A stretch of 64,000 nt of DNA from a virus (IMGVR_UViG_2718218502_000001:2841-66840); one strand, 5' to 3'; shown: positions 50,538 to 55,443, counted from the first letter of the stretch. Numbers and translations are program-made. The notes: generated from the sequence alone by a model not told the origin.

Positions 50538-50681
50538 TGTTTTGGATGCTCCTTTCTTTCAAAGGATTTTTTTGTTTGGTTTCTAACAAACTTCATCTTT
50601 AATTTTTCTGGTTCTAATGAACCTCTAGACGAATACACCATATACTAATTTAAATACGTTCTAGGAAAGCAGGTGTGTACT

Positions 50682-50897
50682 ATGCCTTCTGTCGTTGGAA
50701 ATCTTGTCGTTCAAAACAGTAATGGTGCTTTCAATTTAGGGGATTTTTATAACGTATCTCCAAAAGAGAATACAAAATCTTATAATGGTTCAGGGGCATC
50801 AAATGTTTCTTTTGTTGTTAATACCTTTAACGGTGTTAGTGCAACGAATACATTTGATTCTGATGTTGCTGATCAAGACCAAGTTGTATCAAGTTAA
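50682..50897 (+). CDS. gerPF: Spore germination protein, GerPA/GerPF family
   Basis: MPSVVGNLVVQNSNGAFNLGDFYNVSPKENTK...SATNTFDSDVADQ; SigK-like CATATACTA at 50639. Confidence 0.88.
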   Translation: MPSVVGNLVVQNSNGAFNLGDFYNVSPKENTKSYNGSGASNVSFVVNTFNGVSATNTFDSDVADQDQVVSS

Positions 50898-50922
50898 AAT
50901 TATTTATTTCCCTCTCCCCCTT

Positions 50923-51043
50923 GAATAAAACTCGATATTCCGTCAATACTGTGCATAGGCGATAGCCAAAACTCATATTAATGAACCTCTATCAGCAGTA
51001 GTTCCCTGACCTGAGCCAGTTAGCTTTTGCTAGCTGCTCTTTT
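50923..51043 (+). ncRNA. Candidate sRNA cassette, SigG-like
   Basis: GAATA-N17-AATACTG; promoter region nearly matches the 2539 unit; CAGTTAGC/GCTAGCTG terminator. Confidence 0.45.
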
Positions 51044-51048
51044 AATTA

Positions 51049-51166
51049 CACATTTTTGTCTTAACACTCATATAATATTGTGAATTTAAAAATCATTTCA
51101 TGTTTAAAGGAAAAGTATTCTTTTTCATTACTCCACTCCCTCTTTAAATAAGGTTTTTAAAGAGGG
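51049..51166 (+). ncRNA. Candidate sRNA cassette, SigK-type
   Basis: CACA-N16-CATATAATA(51069); GTATTCTTTTTCATTACTCCACTCCCTC; CCCTCTTTAAA/TTTAAAGAGGG stem. Confidence 0.55.
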
Positions 51167-51287
51167 AATACATTAAAAAAATCTTGGTTACACTGTAAAC
51201 AGGCTCGTGAATAGCCAAATTTACTAATACCCACTCTATGTCTATTACCTTGGGCCGAGCAATTAGCAAAAGCTAATTGCTCTTTTA
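51166..51287 (+). ncRNA. Candidate sRNA cassette (promoter weak)
   Basis: GGCT/AGCC hairpin; GAGCAATTAGC/GCTAATTGCTC terminator; no ORF. Confidence 0.35.
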
Positions 51288-51310
51288 TATTGAGTTAATA
51301 ATAAAATTTA

Positions 51311-51409
51311 GTCTTATTCCTTTTCTACATCATATACTTTTAACCTAACCATCCAGCTCAAAGTGTTACCTCCTATCTTAAAGAGCACTTATGCATGGTG
51401 CTCTTTTTT
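51311..51409 (+). ncRNA. Candidate sRNA cassette, near-identical to 5262-5360
   Basis: 95/99 identity; TTACCTCCTATC anti-SD; AGAGCAC/GTGCTCT terminator. Confidence 0.55.
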
Positions 51410-51457
51410 AGTTTCCTTATTTCTACAAAATGAAATTTTTGTTTAGTTTTCTTACCT

Positions 51458-51580
51458 GCATAATATTTTGATATTTGTTTATACTATAGTTGTAACTTTT
51501 TGTTACAACATATATCCGTATCGATTGTAACTTCTAAAATTGTACAACGGAGCAGTTAGCTATTTCGGCTAGCTGCTTTG
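51458..51580 (+). ncRNA. Candidate sRNA cassette, SigG-type; family with 2789 and 5381
   Basis: GCATA-N17-TATACTA(51480); GTTGTAAC/GTTACAAC hairpin; GCAGTTAGC/GCTAGCTGC terminator; bounded by sites 51428 and 51588. Confidence 0.55.
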
Positions 51581-51814
51581 TTGTTTAAAATGAAGTTTTT
51601 ATTTAGTTTCACTGGTATTGTTCACACTAGGACTAGTACCGCCAAAACATTAGAACAACTGACATAAACGTCACATTTTTGCCAAATTTTATAATTTATT
51701 TTCAGAATCTACAAAATATTGCATTTTTCTCTTTTTTCTATTGGTATAATCGGGCTGTCTATCAAAGTTATAGAAAAATTGATAGAAAATTACTAATAGA
51801 ATGGAGATGTTTTT

Positions 51815-52841: not shown

Positions 52842-52950
52842 CACTAATCTCAGACTTTGACATACAATAATAGTGCCTTTCTATATAATGTGAGTTCGTC
52901 ACTGTCGTTATAATGAGGTATAAGGAGCGCTCTCGATTAGCGCTCTTTTT
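52842..52950 (+). ncRNA. Candidate sRNA cassette, SigK/SigE-type
   Basis: CAC-N16-CATACAAT(52861); GAGCGC/GCGCTC terminator; bounded by sites 52816 and 52955 (139-bp unit). Confidence 0.55.
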
Positions 52951-52979
52951 ATTTAAATAAAGATTTCATTTTAAAATTA

Positions 52980-53068
52980 CACCTATCTAAAAAACATCCA
53001 TATAATATCTTGGGTGTTCTTTTTCAACCTTATTTTTAGTCAGAGAGCACTTTTAAAAGTGCTCTTTT
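52980..53068 (+). ncRNA. Candidate sRNA cassette, SigK-type; family with 3407 and 5517
   Basis: AC(52981)-N16-CATATAATA; GTGTTCTTTTTCA core; AGAGCACTTT/AAAGTGCTCT terminator. Confidence 0.5.
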
Positions 53069-53085
53069 AATTTATTTAGATGTAT

Positions 53086-53175
53086 CACGTTTTACATACA
53101 ATAAACATAAAATGCAAAGAGCAGACAAGACATAGTTTTTATATAATCGTGTACATTTTTTGTACGCGATTTTTT
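53086..53175 (+). ncRNA. Candidate sRNA cassette, SigK-type; family with 5642
   Basis: AC(53087)-N17-CATAAAAT; AGACAAGACATAG core; ATCGTGTACA/TGTACGCGAT terminator. Confidence 0.5.
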
Positions 53176-53194
53176 AATTAAATAAGAATTTTGT

Positions 53195-54175
53195 TTAAAA
53201 ATGATTTATTAATTCCAACTGAACATTATTTAGTAATCTATCAGATATCTCTATATAACCAGGATTTAATTCAATACCAATAAAATTCCTATTATGCTTT
53301 GCAGCGACACGACCAACTGTACCTGAACCGAAGAATGGATCCATAACAATTCCTTCAGCTGGCGCCCCAGCTAATATGCAAGGTTCAATTAATGCTTCCG
53401 GAAATGTAGCAAAATGTGCTTCCTTCAATGGTTTTGTTGATACTGTCCAAACCGACCTTTTATTTCTTTTATCCCGAATCGCTCTAAATGCTTCATGGCC
53501 ATATTTACCGTTAAAGGAGCCTTTCTCTTTGCTTGTTCTTTTTGCTCTTTGTGGCGGACCAAATGCACCTTCCGAACCTCGAACATCTTGTTGGCCATAA
53601 ACTGCTGGCTCTTTAATACTTTCGTGATCGTAATAGTATTTAGGTGACTTACTTAATAAGAAAATATATTCATGTGACTTAGTAGGTCTATCCCTTACAC
53701 TCTCTGGCATTGCATTTGGCTTGTTCCAAATGATATCTTGTCTTAAATACCAACCATCTTGCTGTAAAGCGAAAGCTACTCGCCAAGGTAAACCGATTAG
53801 ATCCTTTGGTTTTAATCCATCTACTGATTTTGTGATTGAAACAATTCCGGTAACTTGGCCAACACTTTGAAAATGATTGTTACCTGGATTCCCTTTTCCA
53901 TCTGCATTTCTTCCACGTCCACTTCCAGCATATGCATCACCTAGATTTAGCCAAAGTGTTCCGTCATCCCTTAGTACACGCTTTACTTCCCGAAAAACTG
54001 ATACAAGGTTGTCCACATATTCATCAACTGTATTTTCTAATCCAATCTGTCCATCTACCCCGTAATCACGTAATCCCCAATATGGAGGACTCGTGACCAC
54101 AGTACTCACAAAATTATCCGGAAAAGCTTTTAGTACGTCTAAACAATGTCCTGGGTAAACTTTATTTAGTTCCAT
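53195..54175 (-). CDS. Orphan DNA methyltransferase, beta class (N4-C or N6-A)
   Basis: VTSPPY (motif IV) near N-terminus, DPFFGSGT (motif I) near C-terminus; bounded by sites 53180 and 54199. Confidence 0.93.
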   Translation of the reverse strand: MELNKVYPGHCLDVLKAFPDNFVSTVVTSPPYWGLRDYGVDGQIGLENTVDEYVDNLVSVFREVKRVLRDDGTLWLNLGDAYAGSGRGRNADGKGNPGNNHFQSVGQVTGIVSITKSVDGLKPKDLIGLPWRVAFALQQDGWYLRQDIIWNKPNAMPESVRDRPTKSHEYIFLLSKSPKYYYDHESIKEPAVYGQQDVRGSEGAFGPPQRAKRTSKEKGSFNGKYGHEAFRAIRDKRNKRSVWTVSTKPLKEAHFATFPEALIEPCILAGAPAEGIVMDPFFGSGTVGRVAAKHNRNFIGIELNPGYIEISDRLLNNVQLELINHF

Positions 54176-54345
54176 TCCTATCCTCCCCTTTTCGATTAAA
54201 ATAACTATTTTATTAAAAATCTTTAATGAGCTAATCCTTACAATTTTGTAATACTAATGTCACTGAAATCAATTTTTTCACTATAAACTCTTTACTATAA
54301 TTTTCCTTATAAAGTTATAAACACACAGTAAGGAGCGGCTTAAAA

Positions 54346-54945
54346 ATGTCTTTTTCTCAATTAAATATTGATGCTTTTCGAGCAATCAATGATTTAGGGA
54401 AGTCATATTCATCCCTAAACTCAACTATGGTATTTGTGGCGGAATATATGGTGTATTTTTTAGGTTTAATTATTATGGCTTATTGGTTTACTCAATCTAG
54501 AAAAAACAAAATGATGATTATTCAAGCGATGGTCGCTTTCGTAACTGCTGAAATAATCGGAAAATTAGCAGGGAATTTGCATTTGAATTATCAACCATTT
54601 GCAGTATTACCTAATGTTAATAAACTTGTCGATCATGCAGTAGATAATTCATTTCCTAGCGACCATACGATTCTATTTTTTTCAATTTGTTTTTCATTCT
54701 GGCTTATTCGTAAAAAGGCTAGATGGTTATGGCTTGTACTTGCATTCTGCGTAGCTATTTCTCGTATTTGGGTAGGAGTTCATTATCCTTTCGATGTAAT
54801 AACAGGAGCTTTAATAGGAATTATTTCAGCGCTATTTTCATATTGGTTAACACCGAAAATTACATTCATCAAACAATTGCTTAATCTTTACGAAAAAATA
54901 GAACAAAATGTAATACCATCCAAAAACAAGTCAAAAAACTTTTGA
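54346..54945 (+). CDS. bcrC: Undecaprenyl-pyrophosphate phosphatase, PAP2/BcrC-like
   Basis: SFPSDH, SRIWVGVHYPFD PAP2 motifs; several TMs; bounded by sites 54199 and 55042. Confidence 0.9.
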   Translation: MSFSQLNIDAFRAINDLGKSYSSLNSTMVFVAEYMVYFLGLIIMAYWFTQSRKNKMMIIQAMVAFVTAEIIGKLAGNLHLNYQPFAVLPNVNKLVDHAVDNSFPSDHTILFFSICFSFWLIRKKARWLWLVLAFCVAISRIWVGVHYPFDVITGALIGIISALFSYWLTPKITFIKQLLNLYEKIEQNVIPSKNKSKNF

Positions 54946-55114
54946 TTAATCTCACAAAGCTAAAAAGATTACATATATTACCGAGTATTTTTCAATATTG
55001 TCTTGATCAAAGAGCGCTCCCCTGGGTGCTCTTTAATTTTAAAATAACGCTTTTATTAAAAAACGAACATTCAACTTAAATCGCAGCTGACAATCCAATC
55101 CAAATTCCGAACAT

Positions 55115-55231
55115 TAATACTCTTCACTAATATTGTTTGCTTCCATCCAGTTTTCACGTTCTGCGCGTGCAATCATTTCTTGCTCCGCTTCAATTTCTAG
55201 GCGTTCTTGTTCGTTCCATTCTCTCACCATA
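55115..55231 (-). CDS. 38-aa acidic phage peptide
   Basis: Own translation MVREWNEQERLEIEAEQEMIARAERENWMEANNISEEY; RBS GTAAGAAA/AGGTAAG upstream. Confidence 0.5.
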
Positions 55232-55443
55232 TTTCTTACCTACTTTTCTTATAAAGTTCAAATTTGATCTCTATCAAAATCTTCAATACCATGTAAAGTT
55301 TACGTAAAGATTGCTATGATTCAGCCTGTCAACCTCAGAAACGTTATATAATGAATTTGCAAACACCTGGTTTGCGCACAAATACCTTTCTGTACGACAT
55401 AACTCTTTTGCTAGGAGAAATCCTAGCCTTTTTTATTTGAGAT

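Follow-up and report, generated by a model that had tools for sequence, protein, structure and literature searches.

Integron integrases (IntI) are tyrosine recombinases of ~320 amino acids with an IntI-specific extra domain. Their attC sites are imperfect palindromes of 57–141 nt with R''/L''-L'/R' boxes, and integron cassettes are promoterless, lie in one orientation, share a common Pc and have a single fixed crossover point. For phages, linker or boundary sequences in modular evolution were reportedly proposed by Susskind and Botstein in 1978, and the morons of lambdoid phages are said to have been described by Juhala and Hendrix in 2000. To our knowledge, a common conserved sequence between morons is not the rule, and real conserved linkers at a density like the one reported here have rarely been documented. 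The stoperators of mycobacteriophage L5, reportedly described by Brown and coworkers in 1997, are repeated asymmetric sites that are bound by the repressor and lie in a single orientation relative to transcription. The SPBRE sites are bound by MrpR, a protein with a tyrosine-recombinase fold (PMC10516654). Promoter-early stem-loop (PeSL) cassettes undergo modular shuffling in the hyperplastic regions of T4-type phages; PeSLs are composite promoter and terminator elements of lytic myoviruses with Gram-negative hosts, and exchange between neighbouring motifs gives rise to mini-circles (PMC2839356, PMC4122927). [quoted passage not shown]

The window, i.e. the whole stretch of 64,000 nucleotides of viral DNA that was analysed, carries an array (50559–55064) of nine copies of a junction element, each on the + strand. 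The element is an asymmetric, A/T-rich motif of ~22–25 nt with the consensus TCAAATAACGATTTTGTTTAATTTC. The strict pattern AAATRANNNTTTYRTYTA matched at 51428, 51588, 52816 and 53180 as well as at 2243 (− strand), 2763 and 4282 (seven matches versus 0.02 expected), and a relaxed pattern added sites 52955, 54199, 55042 and 52185. A third scan, using a 25-nt weight matrix (PWM) over the 74.6-kb contig, added a degenerate copy at 50559–50583 on the left edge of the array. It gave 27 matches compared to 1.8 in Markov-1 random sequence as control, confined to two arrays except for one weak match at 46177. All seven sites listed in the sequence-only reading were recovered on the + strand by the strict or the relaxed pattern; that list had overlooked 52185, and the site at 55042, held to be identical to that at 4282, shares ~18 identical bases with it.

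Information content is at background beyond positions −2 to +22 of the site, leaving a conserved part of ~25 nt. The invariant blocks are AAATRA and TTTT, perfectly conserved blocks measure 4–8 bp, and the least conserved part is the centre, a variable trinucleotide. The site contains an imperfect 8+5+8 dyad; a −35/−10 pair was found on neither strand, nor does the site form a stem-loop of its own. Sites flanked by two reversed units were of the same quality as those next to a sense ORF. In 15 phBC6A51-like relatives, 125 sites were found in 62 kb of variable region versus 2 in 172 kb of flanks, almost all on the same strand. The exact consensus 18-mer occurred in 57 viral contigs, 47 of which had arrays of 3–12 sites, and the nine contigs with a single match differ in G+C content. 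With single-orientation arrays in ~47 viral contigs beyond the window, the observation of a site-punctuated array is confirmed and reaches well past the window. The arrays follow the B. cereus-group phage gene pool and not any single gene lineage, and in host chromosomes outside prophage clusters the motif was found at control level only.

On the left, the array adjoins a Zn-finger-like gene in the conserved flank (50220–50537, − strand). The degenerate site (50559–50583, + strand, PWM 18.6), an AAAGGA... variant, precedes the RBS of this gene when read on the − strand, and homology with phBC6A51 and a B. hominis locus stops at 50557–50558. It is followed by a gerPA/gerPF-family gene in reverse to the phage genes (50673–50897, + strand; Pfam PF10676, E 2.6e-23), so that the predicted gerP gene is confirmed as gerPA, and by three sRNA-like units (a, 50900–51045; b, 51046–51292; c, 51293–51415; all + strand), each closed by a + strand terminator and with no site separating them. 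Sites at 51426–51450 (PWM 25.1) and 51586–51610 (PWM 26.4) flank the sRNA-like unit U1 (51446–51587, + strand). The next gene encodes an 83-aa protein with a signal-peptide-like N-terminus (51815–52066, + strand); its earlier label as LCI-like is not supported, as no sequence match was found in Pfam, NCBIfam or PDB. A site at 52183–52207 (PWM 24.0) lies between it and the gene of a 154-aa protein (52291–52755, + strand, then a terminator), previously described as a 4-TM protein; it is a multi-pass membrane protein, and its Yip1 match was sub-threshold. The sRNA-like unit U2 (52834–52954, + strand), predicted to comprise a TTGACA/TATAAT promoter, an RNA of ~65 nt and a terminator, extends from a site at 52814–52838 (PWM 24.5) to a near-palindromic one at 52953–52977 (relaxed pattern and PWM), which scores on the − strand as well as on the + strand. 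Two further sRNA-like units, d and e (52972–53179, + strand), have one terminator each and no separating site. The claim that sites bracket the sRNA-like units therefore holds for U1 and U2, but not for the undivided groups of three (50900–51415) and two (52972–53179).

An N6/N4 DNA methyltransferase gene (53195–54175, − strand; Pfam PF01555, 7.5e-54), identified correctly beforehand, forms a phage-sense cassette bounded exactly by sites at 53178–53202 (PWM 22.0) and 54197–54221 (PWM 23.8). On the − strand, the RBS (GGGGAGG) and the start codon (ATG, 54175) come directly after site 54199, and at the other end of the gene the stop codon (53195–53197) falls inside site 53180. The layout that had been proposed for this unit thus stood; its description as promoterless is uncertain, as there is a weak, chance-level promoter match upstream. 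The bcrC-like gene proved to be a reversed gene for a PAP2/undecaprenyl-diphosphate phosphatase-like protein (54346–54945, + strand; under NCBIfam cut-offs). Beyond a further site (55040–55064, PWM 24.0), a 38-aa phage-sense ORF (55114–55230, − strand) is the first unit beyond the conserved right flank. The right edge of the array (~55228–55240) has no canonical site, and homology with relatives stops at 55228–55240; an oppositely oriented, degenerate motif resembling the site (55243–55265, − strand), seen by eye in an alignment of four relatives, scores under the PWM threshold. The conserved flank contains an sRNA-like unit (55290–55440, + strand), convergent with the gene of a multi-HTH regulator (phrog_323, 55444–56223, − strand).

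The element has one orientation only relative to phage transcription, and its array appears to hold two kinds of modules. Phage-sense ORFs, which seem to have no recognisable promoter of their own, follow the order site, RBS, ORF and stop codon within the next site. The upstream sense ORF stops within the site in 35 of 58 cases, 17 of them at the conserved TAA of the site, and sense start codons lie at a variable distance of 13–23 nt past the preceding site. Reversed 'moron' units, which make up most of the cargo in the window, are genes or short non-coding RNAs that are probably self-equipped with a sigma-A-like promoter and a terminator. Where such a terminator abuts the site, as is often the case, it forms part of the unit on the left. 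Among the 59 relatives of family 'a', a promoter-like block is conserved and the terminator is near-invariant, whereas the middle is hypervariable; in the 27 relatives of U1, base pairs of the 5' hairpin and of the terminator are maintained.

Units recur in new neighbourhoods. U1 was found in five other arrays with different neighbours, U2 in other contexts (L003, L008 and L009, among others), and the site-to-site methyltransferase unit in L010 with different neighbours; small ORFs and further sRNA-like units recur likewise. In total, 23 unit families are shared in varied orders and neighbourhoods, units are duplicated within arrays and reordered, and each unit insertion adds one site. The relative L006 has 99% identical flanks and different cargo, and the 99%-identical block in common with it stops at 51443, within site 51428. 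Aligned between the Zn-finger and the multi-HTH gene, the prophages differ in content by whole site-to-site units, as had been predicted. Recent homology breakpoints in the arrays cluster at sites rather than within genes: 127 of 195 lay ≤10 bp from a site (18 expected, maximum 30), and the remaining 68 were distributed like random positions. Pairs with a common left neighbour were identical through position 8 and reached background by position 13; in ~60% of cases, pairs with a common right neighbour were identical to about position 0–4. Exchange maps to two zones around the variable trinucleotide, in the two conserved blocks, and not to one fixed point. As judged from these sequence comparisons, the junction element is the place of module exchange between phages.

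In our best reading, the region is the hyperplastic accessory part of the genome of a temperate, phBC6A51-like phage, with the last genes of the replication module (dUTPase, multi-HTH gene) on one side and the regulators preceding the late genes on the other. About half of our belief goes to the element being a junction or linker where phages swap modules through relaxed homologous recombination, in the manner of the T4 PeSLs. Phage annealing proteins or host RecA might carry out such short-homology exchange during co-infection or between resident prophages. Crossovers would fall within AAATRA and TTTT, and unequal exchange between non-allelic sites would lead to units being gained, lost, duplicated and reordered. 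This explanation is supported by the localised, oriented sites, their wide spread, the modular exchange in two zones, the lack of a common recombinase, the distribution of the arrays with the gene pool, the equal site quality and the PeSL precedent. It is weakened by the size of the conserved blocks (4–8 bp), short for RecA-type recombination, by the preference of breakpoints for sites far above other short A/T microhomologies and by the lack of breakpoint enrichment at other conserved modules, e.g. terminator hairpins, as seen with a crude detector. Homology alone leaves unexplained why the motif is conserved between two reversed units and how these first acquired their flanking sites, and an unsystematic look at the phage identified no recombination-annealing protein. 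A further weakness is a small, seemingly intact tyrosine recombinase encoded beside about one third of the arrays.

The gene of this recombinase (572–1114, − strand; Pfam PF00589) lies near the second array of the contig, which has the same site and belongs to another prophage or remnant (2247–9129, + strand; PWM sites at 2247, 2761, 2914, 3055, 3238, 3381, 4145, 4280, 6010, 8433, 8933 and 9105). The two prophages, noted before to differ in their replication modules, have dUTPase_2 (31% identity) as the only common protein. The Xer-like enzyme consists of 180 aa, comprises the catalytic domain only, has R-K-H-R-H-Y in place when aligned with XerA, and is encoded next to an ArpU-like activator (1114–1596). 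It is the sole Phage_integrase-family protein in the contig; the integrase of the phage itself belongs to the large serine recombinases.

It is in our opinion unlikely that the arrays are a dedicated site-specific cassette system functioning like an integron, with the element (21–25 nt) as core site of a recombinase. The most plausible enzyme would be the 180-aa protein, excising and inserting site-to-site units either in cis or supplied in trans by co-resident prophages, with gene-less arrays as the counterpart of integrase-less attC clusters. Sharply focused breakpoints, the addition of one site per insertion, the duplication and reordering of units, and the imperfect dyad would be in agreement with such a system. 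The exchange zones, ~6–8 bp apart around the variable centre, recall the staggered cuts of a tyrosine recombinase and the heteroduplex overlap between them; however, such a least-conserved centre is not tolerated by most tyrosine and serine recombinases, and the enzyme, despite its retained catalytic residues, has no core-binding domain. It or its paralogues occur in 88 of 105 family genomes, one of them in the array's own contig, and, given its intact appearance and its very high frequency among B. cereus-group genomes, it might act in trans. At 65 of the 68 viral loci with the small recombinase an array lies 1–5 kb upstream, at none downstream. Nevertheless, enzyme and arrays are doubly dissociated: homologues 61–82% identical, from hosts of other G+C content, are accompanied by 0–2 sites and ordinary intergenic spacers, whereas homologues just 56–58% identical have arrays with the unchanged consensus, which indicates that arrays follow the host clade and not the enzyme lineage. 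Moreover, arrays with no such gene nearby occur in two or more other conserved downstream contexts, including that of this phBC6A51-like phage, and no recombinase or DNA-binding neighbour was common to all array contexts compared. A separate inverted-repeat element just downstream of the recombinase gene, conserved across genera, is a more obvious substrate.

It is likewise doubtful that regulation is the primary role of the element, with module exchange as a by-product because only signal-preserving junctions survive selection. Bound by a protein, it could serve to silence or insulate the accessory region in the manner of the L5 stoperators or SPbeta SPBRE/MrpR; alternatively, it could be an intercistronic signal at the RNA level, with built-in stops and an unstructured A/U-rich standby or processing site before each RBS. 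The regulatory reading has a precedent of repeated operators in Bacillus phages (PMC10516654) and would suit the partial dyad symmetry and the many asymmetric copies in short intergenic spaces with one orientation relative to transcription, but a conserved gene for a candidate reader near all arrays was not found. The control-level occurrence in host chromosomes speaks against a host regulon site, the sharing by two co-resident prophages against an immunity operator, and the sites lie in one region, whereas stoperators are genome-wide. It also fits the stop codons in the site and the starts shortly beyond it; however, the distance to the start codon varies, and equal conservation with no adjacent sense ORF argues against a purely translational role.

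A promoter function, with the element serving the reversed units as UP element or promoter part, or driving the sense genes as a phage-specific promoter, is very improbable. The element resembles the UP element consensus in its A-tract/T-tract make-up, but only in the U1 family was an A/T block found in the UP position (−60 to −38 relative to a sigma-A promoter), the site there ending just before the TTGCAT −35 hexamer. The nearest promoter-like hexamers of other units are 30–130 nt off or absent, the same site precedes RBSs on the opposite strand and has no −35/−10 pair on either strand, and the region has 23 promoter-like matches, about as many as expected by chance (22.6).

Among the known systems, integrons share with these arrays one-orientation, recombination-associated sites that bound each unit, promoter-less-looking ORFs abutting the sites, content that changes by whole units, and arrays with no recombinase nearby, comparable to attC clusters lacking an integrase. 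An integron was nevertheless rejected. The only tyrosine recombinase of the contig is the Xer-like one and not an IntI, the site is asymmetric, measures 22–25 nt and has no attC-type structure, and no attI/Pc platform is seen; the sense ORFs fit, but most units are reversed and apparently self-expressed, and exchange occurs in two blocks. The sequence-only reading, which saw integron cassettes here, is thus partly supported: whole-unit variation, breakpoints at sites and the ORF layout make the cassette-like layout and the modular exchange real, whereas membership in the integron family was not upheld.

The bcr repeats have in common with the element the TTTAT motif, present within the right half of the site in about half of the copies. 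A bcr1 MITE-like repeat was rejected for U1 (160 bp site to site), which had 0–3 matches per genome in 16 genomes; unit 'a' has 2–17 copies per genome, clustered in prophages, compared to 11–130 dispersed copies of bcr1. Stoperators and SPBRE resemble the element in their many short asymmetric copies in short intergenic spaces, the single orientation being that of stoperators, but they are bound by the phage's own repressor, genome-wide or in promoter regions, whereas the sites described here occupy one region and are common to unrelated co-resident prophages. The reversed gerPA, BcrC-like, membrane and secreted protein genes and sRNAs, with their putative promoters and terminators, correspond to classic morons, and the site behaves as the hypothesised inter-module linker. 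In the explanation by relaxed recombination, the element would act like T4-type PeSL cassettes or Botstein-type linkers and not like an integron. Unlike the composite PeSLs, its A/T-rich core of 22–25 nt has no recognisable promoter or hairpin, promoters and terminators being those of the reversed cargo, and the phages are temperate and siphovirus-like, from the B. cereus group. As in PeSL regions, the motifs are short, conserved and intergenic and cluster in a hypervariable accessory region, with non-essential small genes between them; they bound the indels and replacements that distinguish close relatives, and exchange is ascribed to recombination between motifs.

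The array under study (50561-55270) is located in the larger of the two prophages in the window, which also carries a large serine recombinase gene (13371-14834), the structural genes (23-43 kb), and a primase/MCM-PolA replication module (57-64 kb). Genes of both prophage regions lie on the minus strand, as do the two that flank the cargo, a multi-HTH regulator (55444-56223) and a Zn-finger-like gene (50220-50537). The ~4.9 kb between these flanks is for the most part on the plus strand. It comprises gerPA, an 83-aa secreted-looking peptide, a 154-aa membrane protein, a PAP2/BcrC-like phosphatase, and seven units without ORFs, each of which combines a promoter-like element with a plus-strand terminator. 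An N6/N4 DNA methyltransferase and a 38-aa ORF are encoded on the minus strand. Terminator-like sites were enriched (11 vs. 2.5 expected) and on the plus strand in every case; promoter-like hexamer pairs showed no excess over chance in this region. The 83-aa peptide had been called LCI-like, a name that found no support in its sequence. Positions 53650-53764 (115 bp) of the methyltransferase gene are 86% identical in nucleotides to the methylase gene of Prochlorococcus phage P-TIM68, which is unusually high for phages this distant. A gene for a 401-aa Ser/Thr protein kinase (46896-48101, plus strand), with the AbrB-like gene on one side and the late region on the other, is reversed relative to the phage and looks like another moron.

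The seven sites listed in the sequence-only reading (51428, 51588, 52816, 52955, 53180, 54199, and 55042) were all real, and two further copies were found in the array at 52185 and, in degenerate form, at 50559. The strict pattern matched seven times in the window, with 0.02 matches expected. With a weight matrix trained further on relatives (consensus TCAAATAACGATTTTGTTTAATTTC), the 74.6-kb contig had 27 matches, compared to 1.8 for random sequence; a single weak match lay outside the two arrays. Array copies lie on the plus strand throughout, except for near-palindromic double matches. The site consists of two invariant parts, AAAT.A and TTTT.TT, separated by three variable bases; it forms an imperfect 8+5+8 dyad, yet is clearly asymmetric. 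Across the loci as a whole, 35 of the 58 sense ORFs upstream of a site stop inside it, 17 of them at its conserved TAA, and downstream sense start codons follow 13-23 nt past it. At the right edge of the array, homology with relatives stops at 55228-55240; beside it, a degenerate site-like motif at 55243-55265 (minus strand) is oriented opposite to all other sites.

The flanking gene pair is common to phBC6A51, PHBA67-T, a B. hominis contig, L006 (an NCBI assembly with flanks 99% identical to those of the window), and ten IMG/VR contigs. Between these shared genes, content differs among phBC6A51-like relatives and spans 2.1-6.2 kb. In 15 such loci, the matrix found 125 sites in 62 kb of variable region vs. 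two in 172 kb of flank, in a single orientation almost without exception. In phBC6A51 and PHBA67-T, the region holds small phage-sense genes with one site per short intergenic space. The exact consensus 18-mer was found in 57 viral contigs, 47 of which (G+C 0.32-0.38) have arrays of 3-12 co-oriented sites; nine contigs of other base compositions have a single match. In total, 437 distinct copies were collected from 71 loci. The array-bearing pool includes relatives of anthracis typing phages. Each 5-Mb B. cereus-group genome has 2-10 chromosomal matches to the strict pattern, close to the number for a reversed-pattern control, and local clusters above the control are further prophage arrays.

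Further copies lie left of the window, at window coordinates of about -2575, -2279, and -1375. They are found beyond the first prophage's pair of an ArpU-like activator gene and a small tyrosine recombinase gene, among small membrane-protein genes and an alpha/beta-hydrolase gene; this pair therefore sits within an array. The first prophage has the look of a remnant. About six tandem copies of the heptamer TAATAAC (1990-2030) are found in the interval from the ArpU-like gene to the first array. The chromosomal DEAD-box helicase gene (10260-11636) has 12-nt tandem repeats in its 3' part (10336-10407), which give the protein an SR/NS-rich tail.

Content varied in whole units. Identity between the window and L006 is 99% as far as 51443, a position within site 51428, and the two are unrelated from there to 55228. 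When 15 arrays were cut at their sites and the pieces clustered, 23 unit families resulted, with varying orders and neighborhoods and some duplicated within one array; the non-coding units U1 and U2, the methyltransferase unit, and several small ORFs were among those that recurred. Recent breakpoints were derived from blocks that the 71 array loci share over 300 bp or more at 95% identity or higher. Of 195 distinct in-array breakpoints, 127 fell within 10 bp of a site (18 expected; maximum of 30 in 300 randomizations), and 77 were inside the 25-nt site window (10 expected). The remaining 68 were placed as if at random, 33 of them inside ORFs compared to 39 expected. No enrichment was seen at terminator hairpins, for which the detector was weak. 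As cargo differs between relatives and breakpoints focus on sites, content is neither fixed nor bounded preferentially inside genes, and the expectation of the sequence-only reading that variation proceeds from site to site was borne out.

Crossovers were mapped on site copies that share one neighbor and differ in the other. In left-sharing pairs, identity is kept through the variable trinucleotide (0.77-0.90 vs. 0.37 background) and reaches the background level at position 13. Right-sharing pairs are identical from the right through position 13, and in ~60% of them identity extends across the trinucleotide to about position 0. The decay in both pair types indicates exchange in either invariant block and not at one nucleotide. 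This two-block pattern fits crossovers within short homology, and it equally fits staggered cleavage by a tyrosine recombinase with a heteroduplex overlap, so that it does not decide between the two. We consider homology-guided exchange at the sites the mechanism with roughly even chances of being correct.

A dedicated recombinase acting on the site seems unlikely to us; if one were involved, the arrays would represent a new kind of gene-capture platform. The candidate is the 180-aa Xer-like tyrosine recombinase of the first prophage (572..1114, minus strand), which aligns to the catalytic domain of XerA with every catalytic residue present. It occurs in 476 viral contigs, and an array lies 1-5 kb upstream of it in 65 of the 68 loci examined, namely those with at least 5 kb of upstream sequence. 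Several observations weaken this link. Homologues 61-82% identical, in genomes of other composition, are accompanied by 0-2 sites and ordinary intergenic spacers, while arrays with an unchanged consensus accompany homologues of only 56-58% identity in B. cereus-group genomes. No co-variation of enzyme and site was seen; arrays follow the host clade. Moreover, the phage carrying the studied array has no copy of the enzyme, one copy being 50 kb away on the same contig. Finally, a separate conserved non-coding inverted-repeat element lies directly downstream of the recombinase gene (GTGTAACTC ... GAGTTACAC, then ATGGGTAAC; 7540-7700 in loci L085 and L091, and ~200 nt past the gene in L195-L197). 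It is present in B. cereus-group phages and, across genera, in genomes of other G+C content, and could be the enzyme's real site, a late promoter, or a cos region.

Somewhat more doubtful still is the full proposal that B. cereus-group temperate phages carry a gene-capture platform. Here, a 21-25-nt core site would be read by the widespread 180-aa tyrosine recombinase, which has no core-binding domain, in cis or in trans between co-resident prophages. Single cassettes would be excised, inserted, and reordered, and among the cargo would be small RNAs of a large, undescribed, sigma-A-driven class with a fixed promoter/terminator scaffold and hypervariable bodies. If true, this platform would be functionally analogous to the integron, but carried by phages of Gram-positive bacteria and based on a much simpler site.

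A shared reader protein encoded near the arrays was rejected, since ORF clustering around the 71 arrays found no protein family in more than 20 loci. The only protein common to the contig's two prophages is dUTPase_2 (31% identical). The upstream neighbor is one of three analogous, interchangeable nucleotide-pool enzymes (dUTPase_2, trimeric dUTPase, or MazG), and the downstream context is the ArpU-like activator with the 180-aa recombinase (about one third of loci), a Zn-finger/312-aa/AbrB set, or other genes.

A signal read in the transcript was also considered. Fixed orientation is expected for such a signal and equally for a recombination linker, since inverted linker copies would invert essential DNA on recombining. 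The mean site score was 21.1 between two reversed units vs. 22.2 between two sense ORFs, and this equal conservation argues against a purely translational role. A host regulon site was rejected, as the strict pattern remains near the control level in chromosomes outside prophage clusters. The site is no recognizable promoter, terminator, or known RNA family: no match in the window reached an Rfam gathering score, and at E≤1 neither array gave a relevant one. Sigma-factor promoters, boxes for Spo0A, CodY, dif, and ComK, and the T7 gene-10 leader, compared by eye, did not fit in the right orientation.

The sRNA-like units form families of 59 ('a'), 27 (U1), and 19 ('d') copies in the loci studied. 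Each of these is tripartite, with a conserved promoter-like block, a middle section, 30-90 nt long and completely different between copies, and a terminator conserved including its loop. Family 'a' (window copy 50900-51045; relatives L040:9536-9640 and L053:1976-2065), with a promoter-like block of ~35 nt, looks like a fixed scaffold with a variable payload. Many of its middles are antisense to an RBS and ATG on the phage-sense strand. Reading unit 'a' as a sense-strand mini-ORF was rejected, as the frames are not conserved in relatives. Pairing is kept, and covariation supported, only for the terminator stems and the U1 5' hairpin, the middles being too variable for alignment. Units occur in few copies per genome, clustered in prophages, and on copy number U1 was rejected as bcr1. 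In unit 'b' (51046-51292), a strong RBS on the minus, phage-sense strand precedes an 11-codon ORF, which may be a micro-peptide or a chance match. The units are present in the isolated phages McSteamy, AP631, Tavor_SA, J5a, BMBtp3, Waukesha92, phBC6A52, IEBH, and others, for the most part without annotation. They may act in regulation, may insulate against transcriptional read-through, or may serve another purpose.

Phages acquire and shed genes for lysogenic conversion, resistance, and anti-defence in their accessory regions. To our knowledge, the rules that govern this turnover have been little worked out except in T4-type phages. The motif described here is simple and easy to scan for; it marks module boundaries across an entire gene pool of B. 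cereus-group temperate phages and provides an annotation handle for cassettes and many unannotated non-coding units. Cargo such as a DNA methyltransferase, a BcrC-like phosphatase, and a spore-germination gene was shown to move as discrete units, and the arrays offer a natural test system for Botstein-type linker recombination vs. site-specific capture. A description of the motif was not found in the searchable literature on B. cereus-group phages and bcr repeats, a search outside which the key bcr and Fah expression papers lie.

As a structure, the array is well supported. The likeness to integron gene cassettes proposed from the sequence holds for layout and behavior, but not for the defining features, as IntI, attC, Pc, and a fixed crossover point are absent. 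Among repeated operators, stoperators and SPBRE sites (PMC10516654) are the closest analogues. In the way it works, the array comes closest to the modules that PeSLs delimit in T4-type phages (PMC2839356, PMC4122927), from which it differs in that its core motif is neither promoter nor terminator and its carriers are temperate phages of Gram-positive bacteria.
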